Shown here one piece after another: positions 1,016 to 27,891 of a stretch of 28,513 nt of DNA. Each line of letters starts with the position of its first letter. Position 1 is the first letter of the stretch. The notes under the pieces were generated by a model that was not told where the DNA came from, did no database searches, and saw nothing but the letters and a program-made list of their open reading frames with translations. The stretch comes from an uncultured Pseudomonadota bacterium (GTDB taxonomy: Bacteria; Oederibacteriota; Muellerivitia; Muellerivitales; Muellerivitaceae), in assembly GCA_963770835.1 (NCBI GenBank), contig CAVYRH010000015.1, positions 1-28,513 of the forward strand, in the 5' to 3' direction. The translations under genes were made by a program, and so were the position numbers.

Positions 1016-1043
1016 TGTCCACGATGGGTCCCCGTCGTGGACA
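1016..1043. repeat. 28-bp cassette-boundary site, copy 1
   Basis: tgtccacgatg-ggtccc-cgtcgtggaca. Confidence 0.9.
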
Positions 1044-1050
1044 AGTGCAT

Positions 1051-1941
1051 TCAGAGGCTGTAGGCCGGGAAAATCTTTGACAATTCGGCCAAAAATTCTT
1101 TTTCCTTGTCGCTTATATTTATCCATTTTTTCCCGTTCCAAGAAAACACGCCGAGACCCTGCAGCTCATAATGCACATTTCCGGGTCCGAGCTGACGATA
1201 TCCTTCGCCATAGACCACGATATCCCGGTGGCCGTTCTTTTCCAGGTCTTTCCCGAAGGAGTGGCTAAAATCATAATAAGTAATAAAATCGCTGTTTAAT
1301 TTGTAATCCCAAACTTCAGTGCTGGGAGAAAAACCGAACTTCATGTCCCCGCCGAGCCCCTGCGCAAAAATCCGATAGGTATCATCACCTATTTTTTCAA
1401 TTTCAATTCCATCCACCTCATTCGCGAATTTGCCCCTTTCCTTGGCCGGCCTTGCGTCCCTTCCGTAGGTTCCCGACAACAGCACAATGGCTTCTGTCGG
1501 TTTCATAAGATCGATAAAGTAAATGCTTCTTCCAAACCATACAAAGCCGAAGGAACCCCTTTTGCGAACCCATTTTTCCCGGATCATGTCAAGGCCTTCT
1601 CCCTTCGACCAACCCAGTTCTTGAAGCTTCTGGTAATCCTCCTTCCATTTCTTAACGTCTTTTTCATCAATGTCAGACTCGTCACTATCACGTTCTAAGG
1701 CAAGATCCAAATTTTCAAAAAACGTGAATAGATCAAAAGGGAGTTTTACGCGTTTAATCTTATTGATCTCGGCGGGATAAACATGGTCATCGTGATCCCC
1801 GAGGCTTGGTCGGGGAGTGGGCCATACCAATTCGACTTTTGGCGTCCAATCTTCACTCAGCGATGGAGTTTGAGTTTGGGCACATAAAAAGGTGGGTAAA
1901 AGAAGTACGGCCTCCATCAGGAAAAGGACTATGGTTTTCAT
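1051..1941 (-). CDS. Secreted hypothetical protein (cassette)
   Basis: Likely start MKTIVLF at 1941 with a signal peptide. The stop is 7 nt from a 28-bp site. Confidence 0.75.
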   Translation of the reverse strand: MKTIVLFLMEAVLLLPTFLCAQTQTPSLSEDWTPKVELVWPTPRPSLGDHDDHVYPAEINKIKRVKLPFDLFTFFENLDLALERDSDESDIDEKDVKKWKEDYQKLQELGWSKGEGLDMIREKWVRKRGSFGFVWFGRSIYFIDLMKPTEAIVLLSGTYGRDARPAKERGKFANEVDGIEIEKIGDDTYRIFAQGLGGDMKFGFSPSTEVWDYKLNSDFITYYDFSHSFGKDLEKNGHRDIVVYGEGYRQLGPGNVHYELQGLGVFSWNGKKWINISDKEKEFLAELSKIFPAYSL

Positions 1942-2018
1942 AAAGGCCTCTTTCGTGGACAACCTAAAATCCACTCCCGAAATATTTCAATTGCAGACAT
2001 AATTCAAGTTATTTTGTT

Positions 2019-2046
2019 TGTCCACGACGGGTCCCCGTCGTGGACA
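2019..2046. repeat. 28-bp cassette-boundary site, copy 2 (perfect consensus)
   Basis: tgtccacgacg-ggtccc-cgtcgtggaca. Confidence 0.9.
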
Positions 2047-2078
2047 GCTTACCTTAATGAACGACATGGTCGATTTAA

Positions 2079-2852
2079 CTATTTACTCTTATCCACGTAG
2101 TCGATTTCGACGTTCTCCCAACGGTCTTTCTTCTTTTCAAAGAGGGTCGCGTAATGGTCGTAATCAGCCCAAGTATTTTTGGACAATTTGTCATAGTTCG
2201 ACACCAGAACCTTTAAATGCGTTTCATCCACCCATACTAAATCGATCGGTTCGTAATGGGCATCGTACCCCGTCAAAATCATGATGTTGGCCGGATTATC
2301 TTCCAAATAATTCCTTAGTAAATAATCAACTGGATGGAATGGGGTTCCTTTTCGGCGAAGATTCAGATAAGTCTGTCCATCATTGAACATGCTCGGCCCA
2401 TATCGAAAAAAGATCGTGGCGATCGTACCGTTTTGGGGTGAGGTCCTTTCGACTTTGACGTCGTGAGGCATATATGGCTCATTCAGGATGGCCGGGATGG
2501 AGTACCAAAGATTGATCCCGACGAAAAGCCCTAGAAACAATATGCCAAGCACACGTAAGACCCGAGCCTTAAGATTTATCGCCTTCCATCGACATAAAAA
2601 GCACAAACCGACAGGCCATAAAACTATTAAAAGATCAAGGCAAGCCTTTTGGACCACCGCCGGATTGGAATTCCAGAAAGAATCAAGAAAAAATGACGCA
2701 ACTAAACTTAATAGGATTGCCAGCCCAATTAAAACCAGAAGACAAATTCGTACGATCTTTTTTCTTCGGAAGATAGGTTTCCAGACCAGAAGAGCGAAAA
2801 GAAAAAAGCCAAGAAGTGATTGAGCGCCAAATAAAATATAGTGGTCAGTCAT
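2079..2852 (-). CDS. Membrane protein: ~4 N-terminal TM helices plus a soluble C-terminal domain (cassette)
   Basis: 257-aa ORF with hydrophobic segments, filling the space between two 28-bp sites. Confidence 0.75.
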   Translation of the reverse strand: MTDHYILFGAQSLLGFFLFALLVWKPIFRRKKIVRICLLVLIGLAILLSLVASFFLDSFWNSNPAVVQKACLDLLIVLWPVGLCFLCRWKAINLKARVLRVLGILFLGLFVGINLWYSIPAILNEPYMPHDVKVERTSPQNGTIATIFFRYGPSMFNDGQTYLNLRRKGTPFHPVDYLLRNYLEDNPANIMILTGYDAHYEPIDLVWVDETHLKVLVSNYDKLSKNTWADYDHYATLFEKKKDRWENVEIDYVDKSK

Positions 2853-2909
2853 AAGATCTAATCCTTACTTATTGGATCACTGTTTTTCTCTTTGGGTCGA
2901 CATCCAAGC

Positions 2910-2937
2910 TGTCCACGATGGGTCCCCGTCGTGGACA
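2910..2937. repeat. 28-bp cassette-boundary site, copy 3
   Basis: tgtccacgatg-ggtccc-cgtcgtggaca. Confidence 0.9.
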
Positions 2938-3009
2938 GGTGTTTCGTCAATCCCATAATTCATGTTAGCGATCATTCGCAAGGAAAATTTTAACTTATTT
3001 AAGGCGGCT

Positions 3010-5937
3010 TTAGCGGATGACCAGAACCTTTAATATTTTAGAGGCCTTGACCGGGCCGGTGACTTGAACCCTTAAGTAGTAAAGCCCGCTGGCCACCGGT
3101 TTTTTCCAGGCATCTTCCATATCCCAAACCAGAACCGTGCTATTGCCACTAACCCCATTGGAAACATCGAGTATCTTGCGGAAAGCCGTCGTGAAAACAC
3201 TCCACTCGACGGTGGAACCAGCCGGTAACTGTATTTGTAAGGACACTGGACTCGGGCCTTGGACTGGGTTGGGATAAGGTGGGCCGATGCTGACCGTGGA
3301 AACGGTGGCCGAAGGACTGGGAGTCGCGGAGGCCGTGGGCGTGCCGGTGGGCTGGGGGGTCGGGCTCCAAGACGGGGTCGGCGTTTCCGTGCGGGTAGGG
3401 CTGTCCGAGGGCGACGGGGTGGGCGTAAAGGTCGCCGTGGGTGAGGAGGTGTCGGTAATCGTCGGCGTCAGGGTGGAGGTGGAGGTGGGAGTCCAAGTCG
3501 GAGTCAGCGTGGTGGAATTGGTGGCGGTTTCCGTCGCGGTGAAGGTGGCAGTCCAGCTTGCGGTGGGGGTCGGCGTAGCCGTCATCGAACTAGTGGGCGT
3601 GCCGGTGGGGGTGGAAGTGGCCGTCCAGGTGAGGGTGGCCGTCGGGCTCAAGGTCGCCGTATGGGTGGGTGTGAGAGTGGGGCTATTGGTGGCGGTCAGG
3701 GTGGGGGTGGATGTGGGAGTGGAAGTGTACCAGGTTCCCGTGGGGGTGGCGGTGGGCATGGCGCAGACGCCCGGGTAAAGCTGCAGGGAAGAAACCCCCT
3801 GGAAGGTGATCCCCGGCCCGGCCCAGTACAAAGCCGCCTCGGCGGCGGCAGTGTCCTGGTAGTAATCCATTTCGATGGGATAAAGGGCTCCCGCCTGCAT
3901 GGTGAAGGGGGTGGTGCCCGGCCAAAAGGTATCCGATTGGTCGGCCCAGTGGTTGACGATGGTGTAGGGCGTGGAAGTGGCGATGTCGGTCACGATCAGC
4001 CGACAGCCGTCGTCCGTCAAGGTGTAGAAAGTGTAGACACCCGTATTGGGCGGCTGTACGAACCCGGTGTATTCAATGGAAAATTTTGTCGATAAAACCC
4101 CGCAACCGGTGACCGTCAAGCCGCCACCCGAGGGAATGGCCCATTGGATCTGGGAAACGGGGCCCACCGCGCAGGGCGAGCCCATCAGGTTGTCGTTGGT
4201 GAAATACTGGGCGCAGAGGCCCGTGCCGGTCCCCACGGACGTGGGCGGCGGAGTGGCCGTGGGCGTGGCGCATGCGGGCAGGCCCGCCAAAACGTTGACC
4301 AGGCAGGCGGTCGGGGACCCCCAGCCCGTGACCAGGTCGTACCCAGGAACGGCGGGGTAAACACTGTTGGTGCCGCCGCCCACCACATCATGAAAAAGAT
4401 AATTCTGGTTCTGGCCGATGGTGTAAAGGGCGGGATTGGCGAAGCCCACGGGGGGCCGGGCATTGAGGGCGGCCTGCTGGTTGACGAGGGCCATGAAACC
4501 AGCCCATAGGGGCGCGGCGGCGCTCGTGCCGCTGGCGCCGTAAAGGGTAGTCGTCAGTTCTTCCGTGATGAGATCAGTGGCCACCATGGACACGTCCGGG
4601 ACATTGCGCCAGGCCGTGGAACCGCCGTTACCCCCGCTGGCGATGGGGTCCATGAGAACCCCGGCCTGGTAGGTGGGAATAGGCGTCAAGTTGCTGATGC
4701 CCCCGCTGCTCCAGAACCAGGGGCCTTCCCCGGCCCAGGGACCGCTCACCCCATTCGTCACCAGCACCGTCCCCCCCACGCTGGTGACGTAATTCTCGTT
4801 CAGGAATTGGCTCAGGCCGGTGGTATAGGCGCCCGAATCCCCGGCGGACTCGAAGAAGGATTGCCCCTGGGCCGCGAATTGGGCGAGGGAGTTCGTCACA
4901 TTCGTGTCCACGACCGTGGAGGCCGTGGTGAAGGAGAAATTGATCTGCCGGGGGAAGGACGCGGCGGGGGCGGCAGCGATGGCCGCGAAGATGGCATCAT
5001 TGTTACTGCCTTCGTAAACGCTGATATAGGCCTGGGGCGCCATACAAATGGCCATTTCAATATCCAGTTCCGCCTCGGATTCGTTGGCTCCGCCGTCGAG
5101 GGCCCCGCCGAAGCCTCCGCAGAGGACTCTGGAGGGGACGTTTGAAGGAAGACCCGCCATGGTCTCGTAGCCGGAGATGTCCGTGGCGCGGAAACCTGAA
5201 TTGGCAATGATGGCGATCGTCTGGCCCGCCCCTTCTAGGGAAATTCCCGGGATGTAGGCGTCCCTGAAATCAAACCCCTGGTACCAGCCGTTGATCCCCG
5301 AACCGGTCGAGGCAGGGGTGGGCCGGGGAGAAAGGCCGGGCTCCTTCAAGTAAGGCGCCGGCGGGGGGAGGGGGATTTTTTGCTGATGGGAAACGAACCG
5401 GTCGTAATTCTCCAGGCCTCCGATATGCCCCAAGGGAACATCCAGGTCGACCGAGGGCTCCCGGTCCGGCGCGTAGAAGAGGGTTCCGTCGGGCCGTCGG
5501 TGGCGGCTGAGGTTCACATGGAAAACCATCTGGATATCCGCGACCTTCCCGGTGACGGACAACAAGGCCCGGTTGGAATATAGGTGGGTGACGATTAAGC
5601 CGTTCGAAGTCACAAAGCGGATCAAAGCCTGGTAATCACTCGGGGCGGGCCCATAGCGGGCGGCGAATTCATCGGGCGTGAGAAAATGGCGGTAGAGGGG
5701 GTCCTGGGGATCGTAAAGGCGGTGGAGAAAATCCCTCAGGCCTTCGGTATTTCGCAAGGGCAGACCGATCGCGAGATCCAATCGCTCCTGCGGGTCCATG
5801 GCCTCCACCCAGGGGGCCGTGGCGATAGCCGCGGGAAGGTGGCCGGGCAATAGCTGGCGACCCACGCCTTGGGCCCAAGCGATTTGGGAAAATCCTATCC
5901 AGATGAGAAGACTTATAAATCGTTTCAAACGGTTCAT
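3010..5937 (-). CDS. Secreted S53 (sedolisin/kumamolisin-like) peptidase with pro-domain, PA14 domain, Thr/Pro-rich linker and C-terminal PYPNP sorting-like domain
   Basis: Signal peptide; pro-peptide [24 protein letters not shown]; catalytic motifs EAELD, SAGDSG and GTSAAAP; PA14-like [15 protein letters not shown]; long TPT repeats; C-terminal PYPNP...SGLYYLRV. Confidence 0.88.
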
Positions 5938-6043
5938 ACAGGAGGCTTCCAATCCGACTCGTTAAGATCAGATATAAAAACAGTTATTAGTATAGATAAC
6001 GGCTCAAACCGTTAAAACTTGATTGGGGCTGGTGTTTAAAGGC

Positions 6044-6397
6044 TCAAAAGGGACTAAACCCTTGGTTTGTGGACGGTTTCTGACTAAAGAAATAGTACTG
6101 CGGATTTTGGGGGCCAAGGGGTAGGCATTCGCTTTTCACGCGAGGGGGCAAATCACTGGAATAAACGGGCCTTTCCCGGCGAGTTCCGAATATTGCAAAC
6201 CCAAGTTCCCGTATCGCAGATTCAAAAAATAAATTTTGTTCAAAGAAACTGTTGGGCGTGGTTAATTTAGCCAATGAAGGGGACGAAAATCCTTGATCAA
6301 AAGCTTTGGAAGCGACCTCGGAAAGTTTAGTTCCAGTCGGGATGCCGTCAACAATCCGAGCGGCTGTATAAAGTAATTCCTTTGGCTCTTTTATCAA
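6044..6397 (-). CDS. Hypothetical protein, possibly a 3'-degenerate cassette gene
   Basis: 117-aa ORF starting just downstream of the 6438 site. The C-terminus looks low-quality, and no site separates it from the S53 gene. Confidence 0.4.
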   Translation of the reverse strand: MIKEPKELLYTAARIVDGIPTGTKLSEVASKAFDQGFSSPSLAKLTTPNSFFEQNLFFESAIRELGFAIFGTRRERPVYSSDLPPRVKSECLPLGPQNPQYYFFSQKPSTNQGFSPF

Positions 6398-6437
6398 GGA
6401 TACCTCACCAGAATATTAAAACTTTATTCTTTTTCCT

Positions 6438-6465
6438 TGTCCACGACGGCTCCCCTTCGCGGACA
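6438..6465. repeat. 28-bp cassette-boundary site, copy 4 (degenerate)
   Basis: tgtccacgacg-gctccc-cttcgcggaca. Confidence 0.85.
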
Positions 6466-6473
6466 TATAAAAC

Positions 6474-7307
6474 TCAATTCGTCTCAAGCTGTTCGTAGAG
6501 ACTCTCTAATGAATAATAAAAAAGGCGATGGACACGAAGCGGCCCCATTGAAGTCGCCAATACTGGGGTTTCTTTTGCGTCGAAACCCAAGATTACAATT
6601 TTTCCCGCGACCCGTTTTTTATCGAAGTTACCCTTTATGACGTCAACAAATGAAATTGAATCAATCCGGTCCTTGGCGGGTAGCTGGACGTGGATCTGGC
6701 CCGAGGCATCGACCCGCAGGCTGTGGCCCGCAAGGGAAATTTTGTCCCCCAGGAAGATGCTAGCCGGCTGGCCAAAGGCCAGCTCCAAAGCCGCTAGTTC
6801 CAAAGAGGGCAGGACACATCCCCTGTACTTTACGACCATGGGTATATTGAGAAGGTCGTTTTTTGAGGCGATGTCCACAAATCCAATCCCGGCGCATCCT
6901 TGGCTGAATTTTTCTAAGGGTATCCAACCACTTTGGCCCGAAAGAAGGGCGCTGGTATCACCCCGTACCCGTGACCCGCACCCGAAGCTGACCGGCAATG
7001 AATTGGGACGGGGTTCGGTCTGATCCAAGCGCGCTTGCAACAAAACCGGCATTTTTTTGATCTCGACGGACAGTTCGTCGTCCCCGATACCCGGCTTCGC
7101 TTGATCCAAAAAGTATTTTAGAACGACCGCTTTGGCTTTTGCCACTCGTAGGGTGGAAATGACTTCCGCGTATTTCGAACGGTCATAAGGAAAGGGGCCC
7201 AGTTCCTTTTCGGTCGCGTCATCCACAAAAACCGCGATGAATGGGTTTTGGGATGATTCTTGGGCTAATGCGAAATGGGGCCAATTGATTAGCAGAGATA
7301 AAAACAA
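6474..7307 (-). CDS. Stand-alone secreted CHASE2-domain protein
   Basis: VFVDDATEKELGPFPYDRSKYAEVISTL..AKAVVLKYFLDQ and VAGKIVILG are CHASE2-like. The start may be an in-frame ATT at 7322 after a GGAG RBS. Confidence 0.75.
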   Translation of the reverse strand: MFLSLLINWPHFALAQESSQNPFIAVFVDDATEKELGPFPYDRSKYAEVISTLRVAKAKAVVLKYFLDQAKPGIGDDELSVEIKKMPVLLQARLDQTEPRPNSLPVSFGCGSRVRGDTSALLSGQSGWIPLEKFSQGCAGIGFVDIASKNDLLNIPMVVKYRGCVLPSLELAALELAFGQPASIFLGDKISLAGHSLRVDASGQIHVQLPAKDRIDSISFVDVIKGNFDKKRVAGKIVILGFDAKETPVLATSMGPLRVHRLFYYSLESLYEQLETN

Positions 7308-7346
7308 AATTAACTTTTTAATTTCTTATCTCCTGTTCAAAACCCT

Positions 7347-7374
7347 TGTCCACTCCGGGTCCCCGTCATGGACA
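7347..7374. repeat. 28-bp cassette-boundary site, copy 5
   Basis: tgtccactccg-ggtccc-cgtcatggaca. Confidence 0.85.
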
Positions 7375-7376
7375 AC

Positions 7377-9431
7377 CTACTTAATGTGTCTTTCAATCCA
7401 ATTCATCATATAGTCCAAGACGGAATTGGCTGGTGTAGGGACAGGCGCCGCATATTCAGTCGGATTCCCCGTTTGGCACTCTTGGAAAAGATGATTCATT
7501 TTGGGAAATTCCTTGGTTTCGAAGTCGGTATTTTTTCCCTCTTTCAAGGCCACCCCAATCGCCGACAAATCCTCCTGGGAAGGGACCTGCCAATCCAACT
7601 CCCCGTTCACAGCCAGCACCGGGCAGGCCACTTTTTTCAGCGCATTTTTCGGGTCGTAATTCAGGAAAAAATGCTCCCAAGGGGAACCCATTTGTTGGTC
7701 TATAGCCAGGGCCGATGTTTCCAATGCCTTTCGCTCTTCGGGGGACTCTTGTGCGGTTTCTTCTTGGACTATCTTTTTCACTTGGTCTTTGATCCGACCC
7801 TTATTCGTTTCTGTCTTGAGGACCCCAATGATCCGTTCTTCGATCCTAAGGACCATATTAACGGATTTTTCATCGGTCTTTTGGGCCCCGAACATATACC
7901 TGGCTTGGTCCAAGGAGATTTTCTCGCCGCTGACTCCTGGTCCTGCCATCAGCACGATGAAGGCAATCTCCTTGGATCGGGCCGCTATCATCGGCGCGAT
8001 GAGACCCCCTTCACTGTGGCCGACCAGGCCGATTTGCATGCGGTTCACTTCTTTGCGCGATTTGAGGTAATCAAGGGCGGCCAAAGAATCTTGGGCGAAA
8101 TCCTCGGTCGTCGCTGTCTCAATGTTCCCGGTGGAATTGCCCACTCCCCGCTTGTCATATCTCAGGACCGCGAATCCCTTTCGAGTTAAATAGTCCGACA
8201 TGACCAAAAAAATGTGGTGACCATCGACGGTCTCGTTCCGGTCAATGGTCCCGGACCCTTGGATCAATAAGATCGCCGGGAAGGGGCCTTCCCCCTTCGG
8301 AAGGGTGAGGGTCCCGGCCAGCCGGACGCCCGCTTTTTGATCTTCAAAAGTGACCGTTTCCACGGAATAAGGGAAAGGTCTTTGGGGTTCCATGGACGCG
8401 ATGGGGTTCGGCTTGACGACAAGGTCGCGGTTGAAGTAAAGAGTGAAATCGAATGTTTTTTCATCGTCGGCTTTCCAAGTCCAGGGCTTGTCGCTTCCTT
8501 CCCCGTGGGAAAGAATAATCTCGAGTGCGTCCCCCCATTGTCGGCCGTCCTGTAAAAGGGTCGTCAGCTGGGGCGCCGTGACCTTAAGGCGAAGGCCCCT
8601 TTCGTCCGTCAAGGAACCCAGACGAAGCTCCTCCACTGTGGCGGTGGCCAAAACGGTGTTGGAAGACCTCTCGACGGGAATGGTTCCCCTGCTTTTTCCC
8701 AACTGGTAAGGCAGTCCCGTCCAATTGGAACAGGGGAGTTCCACATTGAACCGGGCCGCGATTAGCGTAAGGGGATCCAACGCTTTCAAGGTGGCGTGGA
8801 CCCTGAGTCCGGTTTTCAAAACCTCAATTTTGGATTTCATGCCGATCCTGCCTCCCTCCGGCAAGACCAAGAAACTATCGAATTGAGGGTCATCCGACTC
8901 GCCATGGAAGGAATGATATTGCCAACCTTCCGTGAATACCATGGCCGTTAGCGTGGCGATCGGATCCTGGCCCGCCGACATTTTCACCAAGCCGTTGTCC
9001 AGTGGTTCGACCACTATGGGGCCGGAAATCTCTCGGGTTGAATTCCCACTCGTTTTTTTGAGGTTAAGGGTTGCGTTTTGACCCTGGCTCCAAGTTCCAT
9101 GAATTTCATCACCATCCTGGCTCAATTGGCCGTCGTAAGTCGCATTCACGGCCGCGACATCCAGGCGTAAGCGACCCTTCTCAAAAGAGGTTTGGCTTAC
9201 GGGAATTCCAAAGGAATTTTGGGTCACACTATCCACGACTGAGGAGAGTAAATGGCCAGGGTTTTCTTTGATATGAATAACGACTTTTAGGTTTGTGTTT
9301 TCGAGGGTTCCATGCCAATCCCCAACGATACCGGGAGGGGCTGCCTCCAAAGCCGACAAGGGCGGTGCACCAAGTGCCGAACCTAAGATCCAAAACGCCG
9401 CGAGAAAAAACGCTTTTGTTATCAGTTTCAT
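7377..9431 (-). CDS. Secreted alpha/beta-fold serine hydrolase (peptidase S9/S15-like) with extra N-terminal domains
   Basis: LAGTLTLPKGEGPFPA, LRYDKRGVG, nucleophile GHSEGG, GELDWQV and MNHLFQ; signal peptide. Confidence 0.85.
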   Translation of the reverse strand: MKLITKAFFLAAFWILGSALGAPPLSALEAAPPGIVGDWHGTLENTNLKVVIHIKENPGHLLSSVVDSVTQNSFGIPVSQTSFEKGRLRLDVAAVNATYDGQLSQDGDEIHGTWSQGQNATLNLKKTSGNSTREISGPIVVEPLDNGLVKMSAGQDPIATLTAMVFTEGWQYHSFHGESDDPQFDSFLVLPEGGRIGMKSKIEVLKTGLRVHATLKALDPLTLIAARFNVELPCSNWTGLPYQLGKSRGTIPVERSSNTVLATATVEELRLGSLTDERGLRLKVTAPQLTTLLQDGRQWGDALEIILSHGEGSDKPWTWKADDEKTFDFTLYFNRDLVVKPNPIASMEPQRPFPYSVETVTFEDQKAGVRLAGTLTLPKGEGPFPAILLIQGSGTIDRNETVDGHHIFLVMSDYLTRKGFAVLRYDKRGVGNSTGNIETATTEDFAQDSLAALDYLKSRKEVNRMQIGLVGHSEGGLIAPMIAARSKEIAFIVLMAGPGVSGEKISLDQARYMFGAQKTDEKSVNMVLRIEERIIGVLKTETNKGRIKDQVKKIVQEETAQESPEERKALETSALAIDQQMGSPWEHFFLNYDPKNALKKVACPVLAVNGELDWQVPSQEDLSAIGVALKEGKNTDFETKEFPKMNHLFQECQTGNPTEYAAPVPTPANSVLDYMMNWIERHIK

Positions 9432-9468
9432 ATTCTTAATTTAAATGCCTCCCCTTCGTTGACAAACA

Positions 9469-9932: not shown

Positions 9933-9960
9933 TGTCCACGACGGGGCCCCATCGCGGAAA
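9933..9960. repeat. 28-bp cassette-boundary site, copy 6 (degenerate)
   Basis: tgtccacgacg-gggccc-catcgcggaaa. Confidence 0.8.
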
Positions 9961-9991
9961 GCAAATTTAATCGGCCAAACCACGGCCCGCC

Positions 9992-11458: not shown

Positions 11459-11526
11459 ATTGCGTTGCACACTATCCTTTTTGCGACAGGCATGTGCAGG
11501 TTTTCATAACGGTACCGTAAATTTAT

Positions 11527-12708: not shown

Positions 12709-12772
12709 CTCGCACCTCGTGAAACAGGGTTGCACACTATCCTTTTTGCGACAGGCATGTGCAGGTTTTTAA

Positions 12773-13430: not shown

Positions 13431-13458
13431 TGTCCACGCCAGGTCCCCGTCGTGGACA
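13431..13458. repeat. 28-bp cassette-boundary site, copy 7 (inside giant spacer 2)
   Basis: tgtccacgcca-ggtccc-cgtcgtggaca. Confidence 0.88.
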
Positions 13459-14726: not shown

Positions 14727-14754
14727 TGTCCAATCCGGATCCCCGTCGTGGACA
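14727..14754. repeat. 28-bp cassette-boundary site, copy 8 (inside giant spacer 2)
   Basis: tgtccaatccg-gatccc-cgtcgtggaca. Confidence 0.85.
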
Positions 14755-15044: not shown

Positions 15045-15081
15045 GTTGCACACTATCCTTTTTGCGACAGGCATGTGCAGG

Positions 15082-15754: not shown

Positions 15755-15813
15755 GTTGCACACTATCCTTTTTGCGACAGGCATGTGCAGGAGCCTGCAA
15801 TTATTGGTGTTTT

Positions 15814-16149
15814 TCACCGTTCCGCCGAATTCGGCGTGATTTGGATAAGTTCAAACGCAGTTTCAATGTCGACATCATCTTTCTTAGAACTAAGCGTACC
15901 ACCGAAAACCGAATCTTCAAAGCACGACCGACAGAGCGTACTGATAAAAAACTTTTCGGTCTTCTTTGCGAAAGCCCCCTTGAATTTATTCTCGAGTTTT
16001 TCCCGTTCTTTTGAATACAATTTTCCGATATACATATTCCGGAAAACCGGCTTGAGACCATAATTCTTGCACCACAGAACCGCCTTGTCCCGATGCCGCC
16101 AGTCGCGCGTTTCCCACGATACTAGGGTGATGGCATTGAAATTGTTCAT
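15814..16149 (-). CDS. cas2: Divergent CRISPR-associated Cas2-like protein
   Basis: 111 aa, overlapping the cas1 stop by 4 nt. Ferredoxin-like pattern LVSWET..R..KAVLWCKNYGLKPVFRNMYIG..LCRSC. The canonical YDI motif is absent. Confidence 0.75.
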   Translation of the reverse strand: MNNFNAITLVSWETRDWRHRDKAVLWCKNYGLKPVFRNMYIGKLYSKEREKLENKFKGAFAKKTEKFFISTLCRSCFEDSVFGGTLSSKKDDVDIETAFELIQITPNSAER

Positions 16150-17156
16150 GATATCGAAAAAAGTTTTTCCGCACGAAACGGGTTGTACTTGTCCTCCTTT
16201 TCGACAAAGTGACGTGCCAACGCCCTAATCTGGTTATCTATGATCTGCTTAAGAGTATATTGTTTCCCCCGCCATGCCGTCGTTTCATTCAACCGCCTCA
16301 TGATCGCCCCCACCACGACGCTTTTTCCCTCAGGCGATAACAGATATTGCCCAACCGCGGTTTTTTCAAAATATTTCCGTTGGCTCAGTTTCTTTTCTAT
16401 GAAAAGCGGGAAAAGCACCGAGTCGACGATTGGTACGCGGAATTCTTCGACAAGATCGAGAACGAGGGCAGGCTTACCATAGCGTTCACTGTGGTAGAGG
16501 CCGAGATATGGATCAAGACCGACGTAAAGGCATGCCCGTTCGACTTCATTGTAAAGGATGCCGTAACCATAATTCAGTACGCTGTTAAACTGGTCCCTGC
16601 CTTGTGGTTTTCGGCCCGGGAATCTATAGAATTTTTTTAACCCGCTGAAATATTTGTCCGCGATGTATCCTTCCGTACCAAGGAGTTGCTCCTTGCCTTT
16701 CTCCGAACACGGGACATTGTCCAAGACATCAAAAAGGGTCTGCGCTTGTAAGAGTTCGGTCCCCACATCCTTTTTATATCGGTACGCGAGATATCGGAGT
16801 AGATCGAGCTGATTAGCGCATTTGCCCCGCACTAATTCTTTCGCGATTTTGAACGATCGCTCAAGCGAAGTTGACGCTTCCAGTTGCGCTTTACGAAGAC
16901 TCGCCAGCCCTTTTGGTTCGCTTGAAAATAGTCTTCCGATGGGCTTGCCAAAAGAACCGAGATAGACGATATCAACATCGTGCTCAATCGCGAGCTGAAC
17001 CGCGTGAGTCGTGAGCGAGGCCGGCCGCAGTATGACTATTTTCTCCAGTCTATGGATGGGGTATTCTTTTTTCTCTTTAACTTTCGGAAAAGAAAGGACG
17101 ATGCGCTCGCCATTTACGCCGATCTTGGTACCGTAAGTATCAATAAGCAAGTCCAT
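16146..17156 (-). CDS. cas1: CRISPR-associated endonuclease/integrase Cas1
   Basis: LLGTEG, DQFNSVLNYGYGILY, GLDPYLGLYH and LVLDLVEEFR; the catalytic E/H/D-E residues are intact. Start MDLLID at 17156 after a GGGGG RBS (17186 is also possible). Confidence 0.95.
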   Translation of the reverse strand: MDLLIDTYGTKIGVNGERIVLSFPKVKEKKEYPIHRLEKIVILRPASLTTHAVQLAIEHDVDIVYLGSFGKPIGRLFSSEPKGLASLRKAQLEASTSLERSFKIAKELVRGKCANQLDLLRYLAYRYKKDVGTELLQAQTLFDVLDNVPCSEKGKEQLLGTEGYIADKYFSGLKKFYRFPGRKPQGRDQFNSVLNYGYGILYNEVERACLYVGLDPYLGLYHSERYGKPALVLDLVEEFRVPIVDSVLFPLFIEKKLSQRKYFEKTAVGQYLLSPEGKSVVVGAIMRRLNETTAWRGKQYTLKQIIDNQIRALARHFVEKEDKYNPFRAEKLFSIS

Positions 17157-17230
17157 GTGGTCTGCCCCCCAAATTTTGTAAACCATCTTTATGCTGAAAG
17201 TGCCTGAATACCATTATCCATTATTTTCGT

Positions 17231-17258
17231 TGTTCACGAAGGGTCCCCGTCGTGGACA
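17231..17258. repeat. 28-bp cassette-boundary site, copy 9 (directly upstream of cas1)
   Basis: tgttcacgaag-ggtccc-cgtcgtggaca. Confidence 0.88.
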
Positions 17259-19253: not shown

Positions 19254-19323
19254 AAATTTACCTCGGAGATATACGCGTACAAAGCACATCATTCAAAAAC
19301 TCATTTCATCGCGTTAAAGCTAT

Positions 19324-19351
19324 TGTCCATGACGGGTCCCCGTCGTAGACA
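19324..19351. repeat. 28-bp cassette-boundary site, copy 10
   Basis: tgtccatgacg-ggtccc-cgtcgtagaca. Confidence 0.88.
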
Positions 19352-19380
19352 AGCTTTGAACCTAGACTCTTTGACTGTTT

Positions 19381-20010
19381 TTACCCTTCGTCTTTCTCCA
19401 GCTGCATTCGTTTGACTCGACCATCATCATCAAAATCGATCGATAAATAAGTTCCATCTTTCCATGTAACCTGTAACTGGAGATCTCCATTTTTTTGAGA
19501 ACCCCTAACTTGTATTAGCTTCCCATAGATCCTTTCAACCTTCGAAAAAGAATCACCCAAAGCCAGACCCTGGCCGGTTAAACCCATTTTTCCATTTGGT
19601 TTGCTGCCCAAAACCCGAATGGCATTTTCTGCCGTTTCAATGATCTTCCCCGTTTTAGAGTCCGTATAGTAACCCGAAAAGAAGTGCATCTCTGTATTGG
19701 GTAATGACCAAATGTATTCCTTGCTTCCACTTCCCGGATCATATTGTTTATCGTCTTTGTCAGTCTCAATCTTTATCGTTGTTGGTTTACCGAATGTTTT
19801 AATAACCTTCGTTAAATTAATTCGATAAATATCCACTCCACAAATGACATGTTCAGCCTTTCCATTGGAATAAACATCATCCGCAAAATCAGGTCCTGTT
19901 CCAAATGAGGCGGAAGTCAAAAAAAATGTGAACAAAATAAATAATACTTTATTTAATCCGAAATTGAACTTTGACATTTCACGCCTTTCTTCACCTTGAA
20001 TTTCATTCAT
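19381..20010 (-). CDS. Secreted hypothetical protein (cassette)
   Basis: Signal-like segment; GLALGDSFSKVERIYG motif; fills the inter-site interval. The start may be at 19977. Confidence 0.72.
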   Translation of the reverse strand: MNEIQGEERREMSKFNFGLNKVLFILFTFFLTSASFGTGPDFADDVYSNGKAEHVICGVDIYRINLTKVIKTFGKPTTIKIETDKDDKQYDPGSGSKEYIWSLPNTEMHFFSGYYTDSKTGKIIETAENAIRVLGSKPNGKMGLTGQGLALGDSFSKVERIYGKLIQVRGSQKNGDLQLQVTWKDGTYLSIDFDDDGRVKRMQLEKDEG

Positions 20011-20032
20011 AACTTAGTTAAAGCTTTTTCTT

Positions 20033-20060
20033 TGTCCACGAAGGGTCCCCATCGTGGACA
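20033..20060. repeat. 28-bp cassette-boundary site, copy 11
   Basis: tgtccacgaag-ggtccc-catcgtggaca. Confidence 0.88.
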
Positions 20061-21003: not shown

Positions 21004-21031
21004 TGTCCATTCCGGGTCCCCGTCGTGGACA
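21004..21031. repeat. 28-bp cassette-boundary site, copy 12
   Basis: tgtccattccg-ggtccc-cgtcgtggaca. Confidence 0.88.
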
Positions 21032-21268: not shown

Positions 21269-21333
21269 GTCCACAGTTGGCAGTTGACGGCTGACAGAGA
21301 AACCCGAAAACTTGGCGGTATTTTATAGCCAAG
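21269..21333. repeat. 65-bp non-coding direct repeat, copy A
   Basis: gtccacagttggcagttgacggctgacagagaaacccgaaaacttggcggtattttatagccaag; 3 mismatches to 23748-23812. Confidence 0.85.
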
Positions 21334-21429
21334 CCGGGCGATTGGGGATGCATTTTCAATCAATGAATAAACGGGGATTCCCTGGCTTTGGAAACCTCAA
21401 GACGGTCCTGAGAGCGGTTGTTTTTAAAA

Positions 21430-22452
21430 TCACCAGGCCGTCGCCGCCACCGCGCCGTTAAAAGCAACCGCCGCAAACACCCCATTCCCATAGGCCACGG
21501 ATTCCCAGTTCTGTGAATTGGGCAGGCTGCGCCCCGTCCAATTGATCCCGTCCGGGGATGTCGCCGCCACCGCGCTGGGGCCGTCGGCAACTGCCGTAAA
21601 ATAGCCATTCCCGTAGGTCACTGACTGCCAGTCCTGTACGCTGGGGAGGGTTTGGGCCGTCCAGGTGATCCCATCCGGGGATGTCGCCGCCACCGAGCTC
21701 AAAAAAGCAACCGCCACAAATACCCCATTCCCATAGGCCACTGACTCCCATACCCTTACGCTGGGGAGGGTTTGGGCCGTCCAGGTGATCCCGTCCGGGG
21801 ATGTCGCCGCCACCGTATCCGGGCCACCGAGGCTGCTCGTGCTCACCGCCACAAAAACCCCATTCCCGTAGGCCACGGAGTTCCAATCCTGCGAACTGGG
21901 GAGGGTGCGGGACGTCCAGGTGACCCCGTCCGGGGAGGACGCCGCCACATTGTTACTCTGTGTAACCGTCACAAACACCCCATTGAGGCCGTAGGTCACG
22001 GAACACCAGACCTGTATGCTGGGGAGGGTTTGGGCCGTCCAGGTGATCCCATCCGGGGATGTCGCCGCCACCGAGCTGGGGCCGCCGGCAACCGCCACAA
22101 AAACCCCATTCCCATAGGCCACGGAATACCAACTCTGCGAACTGGGGAGGGTGCGGGCCGTCCAGGTGACCCCGTCCGGGGATGTCGCCGCCACATTGCT
22201 ACTCCGGGCAACCGCCACGAACACCCCATTCCCGTAAGTCACTGATGACCATTCCTGTGAACTGGGGAGGGCGCGTGAGGTCCATGTCGCTCCCGGCCAA
22301 GGGGTGATCGTGGGCGAAGGGGTAATGGTTGCCGTTGCCGCCACCTGCACCACCGTCACCGGCCCCAGGGCCGTAGGGCCCAGGTTTTTCCCGCAGGCCA
22401 GCGGTAAGAGGGCGAGCCAGGCCAAAATCAAAACAGCCAAGAACTTATTCAT
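21430..22452 (-). CDS. Lipoprotein with tandem Asp-box/BNR-like beta-propeller repeats (paralog 2)
   Basis: ATG 22452 with an AAGGAGG RBS; lipobox LPLAC; ~7 repeats of WTA.TLPS.Q.W.SV.YGNGVFVAVA..AATSPDG. Confidence 0.85.
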   Translation of the reverse strand: MNKFLAVLILAWLALLPLACGKNLGPTALGPVTVVQVAATATITPSPTITPWPGATWTSRALPSSQEWSSVTYGNGVFVAVARSSNVAATSPDGVTWTARTLPSSQSWYSVAYGNGVFVAVAGGPSSVAATSPDGITWTAQTLPSIQVWCSVTYGLNGVFVTVTQSNNVAASSPDGVTWTSRTLPSSQDWNSVAYGNGVFVAVSTSSLGGPDTVAATSPDGITWTAQTLPSVRVWESVAYGNGVFVAVAFLSSVAATSPDGITWTAQTLPSVQDWQSVTYGNGYFTAVADGPSAVAATSPDGINWTGRSLPNSQNWESVAYGNGVFAAVAFNGAVAATAW

Positions 22453-22504
22453 GCTCCACTCCTCCTTAATATCGGCTGAAGGCAAGTCCGCGCGAACAAC
22501 CGGA

Positions 22505-23506
22505 TTACCAGGATGTCGCCGCCACCGCGCTTCCACTTGGCCCACTCGCAAGCGCCACAAACCAACCATTCCCGTAAGCCAACGATTGCCAATACTGCGA
22601 ACTGGGGAGGGCGCGGGCCGTCCAATCAATCCCGTTCGGTGAGGTCGCCGCCACCGCGCTGGGCCCAGCCGCAACTGCCACAAACACGCCGTTCCCGTAG
22701 GTCACGGATTGCCAGTACTGTGAACTGGGGAGGCTACAGGCCGTCCAATTGATCCCGTCCGGGGATGTCGCCGCTACGGCGCTGGGTCCAGTGGCAATCG
22801 CCACAAACACGCCATTCCCGTAGGTCACTGAAATCAAATTCTGTGAACTGGGGAGGGTGCGGGCCGTCCAGGTGATCCCGTCCGGCGACGTCGCCGCCGC
22901 CGTACCACCCGTAGCAACCGCCGCAAACACGCCATTCCCGTAGGCCACTGACTGCCAGGGACGTGAACTGGGAAGGGTTTGGGCCGTCCAGGTGACCCCG
23001 TCCGGCGAGGTCGCCGCCACCGTGCTCAGTTCAGCAACCGCCACAAACAGTCCATCCGCGCTGGTCACGCATATCCAATCCTGTGAGCTGGGAAGGGTTT
23101 GTTGCGTCCAATGGATCCCGTCCGGTGATGTCGCCGCCACCGCGCTCCCAAAAGCAACCGCCACAAACTCCCCATTCCCGTAGGTCACGGAGTACCATTC
23201 CTGTGTACTGGGGAGGGTTTGGGCCGTCCAGGTGACCCCGTCCGGCGAGGTCGCCGCCGCCGTACCAAAAGAAACCGCCACAAACACACCATTCCCGTAG
23301 GCCACTGAATTCCAAGCATGTGTACTGGGGAGGGTTTGGGCCGTCCAGGTCTGCCCGGGTACGGGGGTGATGGTCGGGCTCGCCGTGATCGTGGAGGTGG
23401 GCGCCAACACCGTCACCGGCCCCAGGGCCGCGGGGCTCATGTTTTTCCCGCAGGCCAGCGGCAGCGACGCGGCAAAGATGATTAAAACCGCCGATATTTT
23501 TTGCAT
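22505..23506 (-). CDS. Lipoprotein with tandem Asp-box/BNR-like beta-propeller repeats (paralog 1)
   Basis: Lipobox LPLAC; same repeat unit as 21430-22452. Confidence 0.85.
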   Translation of the reverse strand: MQKISAVLIIFAASLPLACGKNMSPAALGPVTVLAPTSTITASPTITPVPGQTWTAQTLPSTHAWNSVAYGNGVFVAVSFGTAAATSPDGVTWTAQTLPSTQEWYSVTYGNGEFVAVAFGSAVAATSPDGIHWTQQTLPSSQDWICVTSADGLFVAVAELSTVAATSPDGVTWTAQTLPSSRPWQSVAYGNGVFAAVATGGTAAATSPDGITWTARTLPSSQNLISVTYGNGVFVAIATGPSAVAATSPDGINWTACSLPSSQYWQSVTYGNGVFVAVAAGPSAVAATSPNGIDWTARALPSSQYWQSLAYGNGWFVALASGPSGSAVAATSW

Positions 23507-23747: not shown

Positions 23748-23812
23748 GTCCACAGTTGGCGGTTGACGGCTGACAGGGAAACCCGAAAACTTGGCGGTAT
23801 TTTATACCCAAG
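23748..23812. repeat. 65-bp non-coding direct repeat, copy B
   Basis: gtccacagttggcggttgacggctgacagggaaacccgaaaacttggcggtattttatacccaag. Confidence 0.85.
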
Positions 23813-23938
23813 GTAGGCAGATTGGGATAGCTAAGATTTGCCGGGCTAAGGGCGCCTTTTCAATCGATGGATTGGGGGGGATTTTGTGGTGTTGGAACAC
23901 AAAAGGCGGCCCTGACCACTGTAAATAGGATTTCGACT

Positions 23939-23966
23939 TGTCCAATGCGGGTCCCCATCGTGGACA
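23939..23966. repeat. 28-bp cassette-boundary site, copy 13
   Basis: tgtccaatgcg-ggtccc-catcgtggaca. Confidence 0.85.
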
Positions 23967-25413: not shown

Positions 25414-25441
25414 TGTTCACTTAGGGTCCCCGTCGTGGACA
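25414..25441. repeat. 28-bp cassette-boundary site, copy 14
   Basis: tgttcacttag-ggtccc-cgtcgtggaca. Confidence 0.82.
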
Positions 25442-25515
25442 ATAAACTTACTCGATTTTACCCATCAAGAATTGTTGGTGGCGAGTTCACCTAACATTTG
25501 TAGAGTCCAAACGAT

Positions 25516-26379
25516 CTATTTCTTATTTTTCAAAGCAGAAATATAAGGGTCCGTTTTCAATTTATTTTTAATTACTTCGTAAACACCGCCATCCACATCT
25601 TTTAGTTTATTAACGATCTGATCAGCCTCATCCCCCTTGAATATCCCGTAAAATTTATCCCATCCCTCCTTCATGCGGCCTTGATACCAATATAAAGTGG
25701 CGACTTTGCAAGCGTCATCTAGTATCCCATCCTGGCACTTGTCCCCCTTTAATTTTTCGAGCTCTTGGTCAAAAAACTTGGGAAACTTATCGTTTGCGGG
25801 AACATATTTTCGGATTTTCAGGTCATAAGCGAAAATGAGTTTTGGAACAACGCAAGAACCAAAGGCACCCAATAGATGCTTCCAAGGATCTGATAAATCG
25901 ATTATTTCGACGTTCCCGTCGCCATTAATATCCTCCAACTCAAAATAACCCGCTCCCAACTGTCCGAAATCCCTGCCGCTGAATAAAACCGTCATTTCTT
26001 TTCCGAGGTTCAAAAACAGATAATCGCCGCCGCCATTCGCGCCTCCACCCCACCAACTGAGGACCAATTGGGTATCGGGGCCGGGGAATAACTTCCCGAC
26101 TTGGATTTTGTTCCATTCCCGGCTCTGGTCATCCGTCCAGTCCGGATAGCTTTTCATCGCCATCCCCCAATAGGATTCGAGCACTTTTCCATTCTTTTTT
26201 ACTTGGATTAAGATTGGATCTCCATAATCATCGGGATCGGTTGGCTTTGGTTTCAAATTGCGAACAATTTCATATTCCCCTATTTTTAAGTCATCACTTT
26301 TTATAACTTTGACTTCCGAACTAAAGAGTTCCGTCGGGAGAAGTATTAAAAAAAATATTCCAATTAATACTTTTTTCAT
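25516..26379 (-). CDS. Secreted hypothetical protein with an FG-GAP/VCBS-like motif (cassette)
   Basis: Start MKKVLIG at 26379; signal peptide; LEDINGDGNVEII. Confidence 0.75.
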   Translation of the reverse strand: MKKVLIGIFFLILLPTELFSSEVKVIKSDDLKIGEYEIVRNLKPKPTDPDDYGDPILIQVKKNGKVLESYWGMAMKSYPDWTDDQSREWNKIQVGKLFPGPDTQLVLSWWGGGANGGGDYLFLNLGKEMTVLFSGRDFGQLGAGYFELEDINGDGNVEIIDLSDPWKHLLGAFGSCVVPKLIFAYDLKIRKYVPANDKFPKFFDQELEKLKGDKCQDGILDDACKVATLYWYQGRMKEGWDKFYGIFKGDEADQIVNKLKDVDGGVYEVIKNKLKTDPYISALKNKK

Positions 26380-26404
26380 CGTTGTATACCTTTCCAAAAC
26401 TGTT

Positions 26405-26432
26405 TGTCCACGACGGGTCCCCATCGTGGAGA
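26405..26432. repeat. 28-bp cassette-boundary site, copy 15
   Basis: tgtccacgacg-ggtccc-catcgtggaga. Confidence 0.88.
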
Positions 26433-26450
26433 AGAAATACCGACTGCGTG

Positions 26451-26849
26451 TTAAAAGATTTGAACTTCCTTGATAACCCTGGCCATGTGGTTGAAATCCG
26501 CGTCATTATGCAAAAGCTGTAGCTTGTGCTCAATCGCAACCTGGCAGATCAGGCAGTCTATGGAACTGCGGGGCGTAACACCTTTTTCCCGGCAGCGGAA
26601 ATAAATCCGCGCCGCTTGGGCGTAGGATTCCAGGCCCCGCGTAACTCCATAAATGATTTGGGTATCCAGGTATTCCCGGAGATTCCGGAAATCTTTCTCG
26701 GAGGAAGCGCCCTGGAGGATTTCCTGATAGACGTGTTCGGTGATCCCATAGGGAACCCTGCGATCCAAAATCCCCTCAAACCGGTCCACTGCGGCGTTCC
26801 GCCGTTCCCTTAGGAAATCAATAAGAACCGACGTATCCACGAGGATCAA
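26451..26849 (-). CDS. vapC: PIN-domain VapC toxin
   Basis: MILVDTSVLIDF..EILQG..SSIDCLI..LLHNDADF. Confidence 0.92.
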   Translation of the reverse strand: MILVDTSVLIDFLRERRNAAVDRFEGILDRRVPYGITEHVYQEILQGASSEKDFRNLREYLDTQIIYGVTRGLESYAQAARIYFRCREKGVTPRSSIDCLICQVAIEHKLQLLHNDADFNHMARVIKEVQIF

Positions 26850-27052
26850 GAGCCGTGACTTACACGAAGCATTTTGTGGTCGTACCCTTTTCGAAAATGG
26901 ACCTTGCCCTTCAGGTCCCGCAAATCGCGCCGGCCATGATGGGCCACGAATTCCCGCAAGGCGACCTCAAAAAGTTCTTTTTTTGTTTTAGCCCCTGAAA
27001 AGCGAAGGGCTTTTTGAACCAAGTCATCATCCAACACAACATTCGTGCGCAT
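26846..27052 (-). CDS. vapB: VapB family antitoxin
   Basis: MRTNVVLDDDLVQKALRFSGAKTKKELFEVALREFV; AGGAGG RBS; overlaps vapC. An ATACAC-N7-GTGTAT inverted repeat lies upstream (27069-27087). Confidence 0.9.
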   Translation of the reverse strand: MRTNVVLDDDLVQKALRFSGAKTKKELFEVALREFVAHHGRRDLRDLKGKVHFRKGYDHKMLRVSHGS

Positions 27053-27198
27053 TTTTATACACCTCCTTATACACCATCCTAGTGTATCGAAAGCCCGCCC
27101 GTCAACGAACGTTGTCCGTTCCATCGGGGCTTAATCATTTCACCCTGAGCGGCTAACAGGCCCTGGTAGCCCAAAGTCAAATAATCAGTACCACTGAT

Positions 27199-27226
27199 TG
27201 TCCACGACGGGTCCCCGTCGTGGACA
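27199..27226. repeat. 28-bp cassette-boundary site, copy 16 (perfect consensus)
   Basis: tgtccacgacg-ggtccc-cgtcgtggaca. Confidence 0.9.
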
Positions 27227-27236
27227 ACACTTATAC

Positions 27237-27836
27237 CTAGATTACGCTTGGTCGTGAAGAATCCAAGTAATTAAACTTAGAATCCTCAAAAGCTCTCTCC
27301 AAAGCTTCAATCCCTTTTTCCTTCGCAAAGCCCAATTCTTTCTTTGTTATCGGTACTAGCCAATAACAACGTACATCCTTTTTCTCAAATTGAAAATTTT
27401 CCAATTTAGGACCATCTAAATAGGGCAACAAAATAAAGCCATGGCGACAATCGGAATCAGGTAACCAAGGACGACCAAAATCGACAGTGTGATGAAGATT
27501 TAGTTGGGAGCCGGTTAAGTGGTAATGAGTAATAACCGTCAACAACTCCACATGCAGTTCCACTTGTTGGCTCGGGGAGAATAAATGTAATTCGATACCA
27601 TTTTGTTGAAGTGTTTCCGACATTCCAATAGTGGCGTAGGTCCACATTTTTCTTTTTCCAGTTGGGGCAAATTCAATAATGGAAAAGTCGGCGGGCAATT
27701 CTTTATAAGGCCCCAAGGATAATCTTTCGCAGGCTTGTTCAGGCCTCCACAAAGTATTTGTCCGACCCCAATTGCTTTCATAATGCTGGATAAGAAGTTT
27801 GGAATAATTAGAACTGGAAATTCGAAGCCTCCTCAT
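27237..27836 (-). CDS. Suppressor-of-fused (SUFU) domain protein, polymorphic-toxin immunity-type
   Basis: WTYATIGMS..IELHL..HTVDFGRPW..WLVPITKKELGFAKEKGIEALE. Confidence 0.85.
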   Translation of the reverse strand: MRRLRISSSNYSKLLIQHYESNWGRTNTLWRPEQACERLSLGPYKELPADFSIIEFAPTGKRKMWTYATIGMSETLQQNGIELHLFSPSQQVELHVELLTVITHYHLTGSQLNLHHTVDFGRPWLPDSDCRHGFILLPYLDGPKLENFQFEKKDVRCYWLVPITKKELGFAKEKGIEALERAFEDSKFNYLDSSRPSVI

Positions 27837-27863
27837 TTAGGCAACCAAATCGAGCACTTTCGT

Positions 27864-27891
27864 TGTCCATGACGGGTCCCCGTCGTGGACA
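27864..27891. repeat. 28-bp cassette-boundary site, copy 17
   Basis: tgtccatgacg-ggtccc-cgtcgtggaca. Confidence 0.9.

Follow-up and report, generated by a model that had tools for sequence, protein, structure and literature searches.

What moves the genes in an array in which unrelated open reading frames (ORFs) are separated by copies of one short palindrome? The question is raised by a 28,513-bp stretch of DNA from an uncultured soil bacterium of the family Muellerivitaceae (GenBank assembly GCA_963770835.1, contig CAVYRH010000015.1). This stretch, hereafter the window, is the entire contig C15 of its source genome, G000 (4.58 Mb in 26 contigs). A sequence-only reading of the window had proposed a cassette-shuffling platform, distinct from integrons and pdif modules, in which a tyrosine recombinase acts on a 28-bp site of 11-6-11 architecture. 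We followed up this proposal in G000 and in a family sample of 31 genomes, in which relatives carry G-numbers and G004 belongs to another genus than G000. Four names are used below: S is the 28-bp site, R is a 37-bp repeat, SR275 is a 275-residue serine recombinase, and S* is a special copy of S behind SR275. The results support the platform itself: S arrays are real, integron-like cassette arrays in which exchange takes place at a short site of double-stranded DNA. The cassettes, however, are likely moved by a shortened serine recombinase, in which case the system would represent a new kind of gene capture.

The window contains 17 copies of S in a single orientation, the number counted before, with none expected by chance. 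Searches with at most 3 mismatches found 13 plus-strand positions (0 in 100 shuffles), and repeat-family searches together with searches allowing up to 6 mismatches recovered all 17. The sites lie on the plus strand at 1016..1043, 2019..2046 (perfect consensus), 2910..2937, 6438..6465, 7347..7374, 9933..9960 (four mismatches), 13431..13458, 14727..14754 (variant left arm), 17231..17258, 19324..19351, 20033..20060, 21004..21031, 23939..23966 (variant left arm), 25414..25441 (left arm TGTTCACTTAG), 26405..26432, 27199..27226 (perfect consensus), and 27864..27891. Fourteen have the core GGTCCC, as claimed; the exceptions are at 6438 (GCTCCC), 9933 (GGGCCC), and 14727 (GATCCC). Among the 28 window ORFs scanned, 27 are on the minus strand, and the claim that S follows the stop codon of a minus-strand ORF by 2 to 74 nt holds for 15 of the 17 sites; it fails at 20033 (186 nt) and 21004 (133 to 398 nt).

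The proposed architecture needs correction. The palindrome extends beyond 11-6-11 to 13-2-13, TGTCCACGACGGG-TC-CCCGTCGTGGACA. Over the 85 copies of S in G000, T14 is conserved in 98% and C15 in 100%; the inner left arm (positions 7-10) is conserved in just 60-81%. The left arm was correctly described as the more variable one, with 124 changes versus 43 in the right arm of these copies. Arm changes are one-sided in 169 cases and compensated in 4, a pattern suggesting that the arms are separate protein-binding half-sites and not a stem under selection. S thus appears to be a protein-binding double-stranded site rather than a selected hairpin.

These observations bear on the idea that S is a repetitive extragenic palindromic (REP)-like or RNA-level element, for instance a hairpin at mRNA 3' ends, an odd terminator, or a processing site, with reshuffling as a by-product of homologous recombination between repeats. 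This idea would be in keeping with the position of S, which on the gene strand follows stop codons, with its capacity to form a 12-bp stem, and with the three parasites that target S, described below; REPs and attC sites are both targeted by IS110/IS1111 elements and group II introns. However, S is not dispersed in both orientations, the pattern that would have refuted the sequence-only reading; its copies cluster in accessory islands, with 75 of 85 having another within 5 kb, and each contig has one orientation. The lack of compensation in the arms speaks against a hairpin, and terminator prediction on S in window positions 1-20000 found a T-tail at only 1 of 11 sites, on the noncoding strand. 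We found no gene for a REP-associated tyrosine transposase, as PF01797 (Y1) had no hits in G040, the genome richest in half-sites (95), or in G037; the IS200-like gene of G000 was not found in G004. In addition, S sites whose arms diverge have just 18 nt in common, which would be too short for RecA exchange, and nevertheless carry hybrid arms. A REP-like or RNA-level nature of S is therefore very improbable in our view.

Arrays of S are a genome-scale feature. The largest, at C3 37.3-110.9 kb, is flanked by lipopolysaccharide glycosyltransferase genes. In the 55 S-S intervals of at most 4 kb, 19,428 ORF residues (92%) are on the cassette strand versus 1,792 on the opposite one. The 28-mer (up to 3 mismatches) was present in 15 of the 18 family members sampled and absent from all 11 genomes taken from the phylum's other families outside the order; the half-site (up to 1 mismatch) was found in 27 of the 31 family genomes, at 0 to 95 copies per genome. 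In a scan of GTDB species genomes, clustered hits, among the matches listed, were mostly in records titled FCPU426, a candidate phylum, and single hits in high-GC genera were consistent with our own estimate of ∼17 chance matches. Viral contigs contained no exact half-sites.

Do the cassettes move? They recur in different contexts and break at S, in line with the proposed shuffling. The 863-bp cassette at 2047..2909 (minus strand), which encodes a 257-aa membrane protein, has four 100% identical copies in G000 in three different upstream contexts, and homology ends at S sites. Contig C17 fuses window 25424-27226 directly to window 2910-4131 (C17:13591-16584, 99-100% identity, changed order). 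The C17 homology begins at position 11 of the S site at 25414; the two cassettes at 25442..27198 (minus strand), a 302-aa ORF and a VapBC pair, are 100% identical on C17 and have other cassettes on either side there. The cassettes common to C15 and C17 in different order reflect either a real duplication or a bin that combines two strains. Cassettes are also shared across genera. Window 1026-2045, with the cassette for a 307-aa secreted protein that belongs to no known family (1044..2018, minus strand), is 100% identical to G004:C4:856662-857681, whereas conserved flanking DNA of the two genomes, e.g., the ATP synthase region, is ∼90% identical at best. Among same-genus genomes, nothing of window 1016-20060 exceeds 81% identity except the S sites. 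The G004:C2 and G000 C11 arrays have one flank in common at 90.8% identity and no cassette in common at ≥90%.

To map the exchange point, 142 S sites from G000 and G004 were compared pairwise by flank, with positions given on the gene strand. Eleven pairs match in the upstream flank alone. Six of these differ within S: in five the changes are confined to positions 19-28, and the remaining one is an IS110-flank pair. Rare 5' arm variants are shared in 3 of the 11, i.e., they travel with the upstream flank. On the other side, the rare 3' arm CTTCGTGAACA accompanies the cas1 cassette in three G000 contexts, including the window, where it belongs to the S site in front of cas1 (17231..17258), and the G004 cas1 copy also has CTTCGTGAACA, but behind a different 5' arm. 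In two further single pairs, positions 12-13 go with one side and position 18 goes with the other. The segregation of rare arm variants with their own flanks places the exchange at the center of S. The cassette unit thus consists of a 3' arm, a leader, the ORF(s), and a 5' arm plus center, and the crossover falls on, or immediately beside, the central TC.

Which enzyme acts there? The window contains neither a recombinase nor an attI-like end; it terminates in a group II intron on one side and an IS110-family copy on the other. The only PF00239 hit in G000 is SR275, on C17 (C17:12078-12905). SR275 has a catalytic Resolvase domain (PF00239, residues 11-157) that includes the active-site serine, a Recombinase domain (PF07508, residues 186-268), and a YVRVSSKEQ motif; it ends at residue 275 without the zinc-ribbon and coiled-coil part, and no C-terminal half was found elsewhere in G000. 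A sequence search of solved structures gave a sole match, the resolvase catalytic domain (E 1.4e-7), and the CcrB score of SR275 is 70 bits versus a cutoff of 900. SR275 was first read as a broken large serine recombinase, as relatives with 46-55% identity are encoded by frames of 510-570 aa; this reading was dropped on the strength of the full copies, dN/dS, the S* junction, and 19 clusters of short homologs. There are five full copies, 275-323 aa long, in four genera. Their pairwise ratios of nonsynonymous to synonymous substitution rates (dN/dS), 0.08-0.16 at saturated dS, indicate that SR275 is under purifying selection. In a collection of 5.8 billion proteins, 19 clusters (275-283 aa) reach ≥68% identity; below them there is a gap, and ordinary, longer large serine recombinases come next, at ≤59%. 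None of the 19 short clusters has PF13408, which many of the longer and more distant relatives do have.

SR275 is linked to S by a conserved junction. Among 12 SR275 copies, full or 5' truncated, in which the match ends at residue 273-275, S begins 17 nt past the match end in 9, and a 14-nt palindrome, TCAGTAGTACTGAG or a one-base variant, lies between the SR275 end and S in those copies. In 8 of the 9 (from G000, G034 [4], G040, and G004) this S is S*, which has the left arm TGTTCCTTTTG, TGTTC(C/A)(T/C)TTTG, before GGTCCC-CGTCGTGGACA; the G042 SR275 copy has the consensus left arm in place of the S* arm. The DNA behind S* is different in every copy, and in three loci checked the cassette ORFs behind S* are on the opposite strand, so that the genes run towards SR275. 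A strict S* junction is present in 4 of the 31 genomes, exactly the four richest in sites. Full SR275 was found in 5 of 13 genomes with at least 15 half-sites versus none of 18 with fewer, counts that are not independent because the genomes are related; remnants occur in G040, G002, and G042. The 14-nt palindrome is itself conserved as TCAGTAGTACTGA(G/C): it is located at C17:12906-12919 in G000, between the SR275 stop codon and S*, and at the same place in G034, G040, and G004. Its role may be that of an accessory binding site or of a terminator.

The sequence-only reading had assigned the platform to a tyrosine recombinase. In that case, a Xer-like enzyme or one of six 370-aa paralogs would act on S as an 11-6-11 dif-like site, and a 28-bp S can be read in this way, with dif and pdif sites as described in an excerpt of PMC6449649. 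G000 encodes 12 tyrosine recombinases. Its one Xer-like gene is single copy and conserved in all five genomes tested, and a trans-acting host enzyme would account for arrays without a nearby recombinase. The six paralogs (C5:233290-234405, C5:241383-242486, C10:70284-71381, C1:7328-8407, C2:210367-211437, and C26:882158-883101) are 360-370 aa long, with 55-80% identity among them and a small upstream ORF overlapping each; they belong to a family that is multicopy across the bacterial family, and one copy is 0.7 kb behind S at the C26 end. Yet the other five have neither S nor a half-site nearby, and a conserved S junction is absent for every tyrosine recombinase. The paralog family and the Xer-like gene are present at similar identity in site-poor G011 (four half-sites), the paralogs also occurring in other site-poor genomes, and no recombinase of G000, the Xer-like one included, reaches the XerC, XerD, or IntI cutoffs. 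The palindrome of S, reaching as it does to a 2-bp center, does not fit the 11-6-11 model either. Two other tyrosine recombinases of G000 have no relatives in the five genomes tested, and a search of the neighborhood of the Xer-like gene revealed no convincing host dif. With no tyrosine recombinase linked to the arrays, and with the site architecture and the recombinase-S* module pointing to a serine recombinase, we consider the tyrosine recombinase explanation unlikely.

We favor, at slightly better than even confidence, the reading that the 17 S sites are copies of one 13-2-13 cassette-bounding site and that the cassettes are moved by site-specific recombination at its center, probably by SR275. 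In this mechanism, the two 13-bp arms of an S would be occupied by a recombinase dimer, and two S sites would pair. Cleavage of both at the central TC/GA dinucleotide would be followed by exchange of the halves and religation. The asymmetry of this dinucleotide would restrict ligatable products to pairs of like-oriented sites. From two direct S sites a circle with a single cassette and a single site would be released, and by the reverse reaction it would be inserted at any S. In large serine integrases, according to excerpts of PMC3783163, a half-site of 25 bp is covered jointly by the recombinase and zinc-ribbon domains, direction is under the control of the coiled coil, and product forms only with parallel alignment of the central dinucleotide. 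A recombinase domain alone would be expected to recognize a half-site of ∼13 bp, as in S, and the absence of the zinc ribbon and coiled coil from SR275 would fit both a short half-site and the lack of built-in direction control. S* would be the counterpart of the integron attI, with variable DNA behind a fixed recombinase-site junction. Arrays without SR275, such as that in the window, would be served in trans or would be relics, like the attC clusters without an integron integrase (CALINs).

Several observations weigh against this reading. Breakpoint mapping cannot separate a 2-bp center from a 6-bp spacer, and part of the evidence for rearrangement within the genome could reflect a strain mixture in the bin, given that C17 and C15 have 100% identical cassettes. 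Comparison of G000, G004, and G034-G042 DNA yielded no empty-versus-occupied cases (A-B versus A-X-B), and neither circles nor excision joints were seen for window 1-20000, although the data were sparse contigs of three soil runs (5-15% of sampled words). In 7 of the 13 site-rich genomes SR275 was not detected: there was no trace of it in G031, G033, G012, G014, G035, and G018 and only a fragment in G002. G040, the richest, likewise has only a fragment. These are draft genomes and arrays break assemblies, so absence is not proven there. SR275 also sits at the transcriptionally distal end of the array, convergent with the cassettes, so that a single upstream promoter would not favor new cassettes. 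Finally, SR275 has none of the domains by which known large serine recombinases choose sites and synapse.

The frequent 5' truncation of SR275 copies, the joints unseen in reads, and the absence of a nearby recombinase from most arrays could mean that the arrays are fossils in which S was laid down by a lost recombinase or by the introns and nothing moves today. This, too, is very improbable in our view, as cassettes are 99.9-100% identical between genera whose conserved genes are ∼90% identical, identical cassettes occupy several contexts of one genome, and SR275 is subject to purifying selection.

How do cassettes bounded by S, and probably moved by SR275, compare with known systems? They share with integrons and CALINs long arrays of co-oriented, unrelated, mostly promoterless single-gene cassettes, with a recombination site after each and a cargo of toxin-antitoxin pairs, GNAT acetyltransferases, and proteins without known function. 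Integrons, too, have a recombinase gene beside a special site with variable DNA behind it, and their sites are hit by group II introns and IS110/IS1111-type elements. In other respects the two differ. The attC sites are longer, imperfect palindromes with RYYYAAC ... GTTRRRY ends that are recombined as a folded single strand, whereas S is a 28-bp near-perfect palindrome that has no attC boxes, occurs as direct repeats, and shows no sign of a selected folded single strand. The candidate enzyme here is a serine recombinase and IntI is a tyrosine recombinase; SR275 converges with the cassettes at the distal end, and IntI diverges from the first cassette beside a promoter. The best TIGR02249 (IntI) score in the whole of G000 is 44.6 bits against a cutoff of 265, and an Rfam search (E up to 0.1) returned hits to introns and riboswitches only. 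The claimed distinction from IntI/attC integrons is thus borne out. As with CALINs, half of which are in genomes without IntI according to an excerpt of Cury et al. 2016 (PMC4889954), many S arrays have no nearby recombinase.

In pdif and dif modules, as excerpts of PMC6449649, PMC10132070, and PMC13141974 describe them, 28-bp sites likewise bound small accessory modules in varied contexts, the enzyme acts in trans, and insertion sequences target the sites. The pdif sites are inverted and on Acinetobacter plasmids in the excerpted part of PMC6449649; S sites are direct, in one orientation per contig, and chromosomal, with arrays of up to 73 kb, so that the separation from pdif modules is supported as well. 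dif has a variable 6-bp center, in contrast to the conserved center of 13-2-13 S. A third comparison is with staphylococcal cassette chromosome (SCC) elements and other substrates of large serine recombinases. SCC elements are bounded by direct repeats, stack in tandem, and can be moved in trans; they are 20-60 kb long and use attP/attB pairs, unlike the single-gene units and uniform S sites described here. SR275 has the catalytic and "recombinase" domains of large serine recombinases, including Ccr, and polarity would similarly come from an asymmetric central dinucleotide (excerpts of PMC3783163). It differs from them in lacking the zinc ribbon and coiled coil, and S is 28 bp versus 40-50 bp.

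S has parasites of its own. Just behind the S site at 1016..1043, next on the gene strand, is an ORF-less group II intron, Y (216..1013, minus strand; Rfam RF02003 and RF00029). Of its 18 G000 copies, 12 are behind full S, 4 are behind S already split by another intron, and 2 are ectopic; some copies contain an IS110-family element. All copies of Y have TC before and TCTGCA after the predicted ends, for which simple retrohoming is no explanation. A second group II intron, which encodes a 455-aa reverse transcriptase, has 11 G000 copies outside the window (e.g., C3:1709-3665). In nine of them the 5' arm TGTCCACGACG precedes the intron; where the 3' flank of these is readable, in seven, the site continues at or near GGGACC. 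The two ectopic copies of this intron are in look-alike sequence. The IS110-family element is directly behind the S end GTGGACA in three of four full copies, in either polarity; in the window, an end of such an element (group B; 28243..28513, minus strand) breaks the contig. IS1111-attC elements of integrons are one parallel to these parasites. The group IIC-attC introns, as excerpted from PMC7923331, are another.

S is not the only punctuation in the window. In addition to the 17 S sites, four intergenic places carry exact copies of the 37-bp R instead, on the plus strand at 11464..11500, 12729..12765, 15045..15081, and 15755..15791. The last is 22 nt behind the stop codon of a cas2-like ORF (15814..16149, minus strand; 111 aa, with only a weak Pfam match of 15.5 bits, E 0.021), which adjoins cas1 (16146..17186, minus strand; 346 aa). 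The unit 15755-17258, comprising R, the cas2-like ORF, cas1, and S, is present in G000 in three whole copies and one truncated copy. R has 27 copies in G000, 22 of them exact, which run in the same direction as S and recur downstream of cas1-cas2 at a spacing of 0.7-12 kb. In the search of 31 relatives, R turned up in G000, G004, and G014 alone, the same genomes in which close Cas1 copies (93-100% identical) occur; G019 and G022 have only relatives with 30-33% identity. Unlike S, R often adjoins gene fragments: cas1 residues 103-346, an autotransporter C terminus, a malectin fragment, a GmrSD/FecR chimera, and a TPR fragment on the other strand. Exact R copies beside arbitrary fragments may fit Cas1-type integration with repeat duplication, which we regard as a lead and not a finding.

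R resembles CRISPR adaptation and casposons in that exact downstream copies lie in one orientation behind cas1-cas2, as would result from repeat duplication at each insertion (PMC4046053, in part). It differs in that the "spacers" are 0.67-12 kb long and hold genes or fragments, not a few tens of bases. No canonical CRISPR array was found in G000, a metagenome scan showed one R per locus only, and no family B polymerase, terminal inverted repeats, or normal array was seen with the R system. A tentative and, on balance, doubtful proposal is that the family hosts two independent but interwoven gene-capture machines, a minimal serine recombinase acting on S and a Cas1-Cas2 that inserts kilobase-sized DNA, be it complete genes or fragments, between exact R copies. 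If this is true, Cas1-Cas2 and R would represent CRISPR adaptation as a recorder of gene-sized DNA, with no interference genes seen beside it.

The rest of the window cargo is diverse. It includes a GNAT acetyltransferase, hydrolases, surface proteins, and, as reported before, two toxin-antitoxin pairs, PemK/MazF (12773-13117 with 13114-13353) and PIN-VapB (PIN, 26451-26849; VapB, 26846-27124). No Pfam family was found for 12 of the 28 ORFs scanned, and GC varies from 0.38 to 0.65 along the window, which agrees with the variation noted earlier. A 980-aa pro-kumamolisin/PA14 protein is encoded at 3010-5952 with 64% GC, versus 38-50% in its neighbors, and its gene contains short G/T-rich internal repeats at 3318-3763. 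Two overlapping high-GC ORFs at 21430-23506 comprise ∼13 tandem repeats of 120 nt (40 residues) with weak EPTP/beta-propeller matches; the regions upstream of each (21269-21349 and 23748-23828) are an 88% duplicate of each other. At the low end of the contig, just past the last cassette and the intron, lies a fluoride riboswitch (31-96, minus strand; 51 bits against a gathering score of 34).

At the level of titles and abstracts, the literature on FCPU426, non-attC cassettes, serine-recombinase arrays, and long-spacer stand-alone Cas1-Cas2 contained no description of such a system. Integrons are the classic example of gene capture, and to our knowledge all of them rely on a single tyrosine recombinase family together with attC sites in folded single-stranded form. 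If S arrays are an independent platform with a short double-stranded site, probably served by a minimal serine recombinase, cassette arrays would be a convergent solution, and the parasites of S mirror the attC parasites of integrons. A compact recombinase and its 28-bp site would offer a candidate genome-engineering tool, and the cas1-cas2-linked R with its kilobase inserts bears on how CRISPR adaptation relates to casposon-type integration. For the bacteria of soil and peat in which these arrays are found, the platform would open a large uncharted pool of cassettes.

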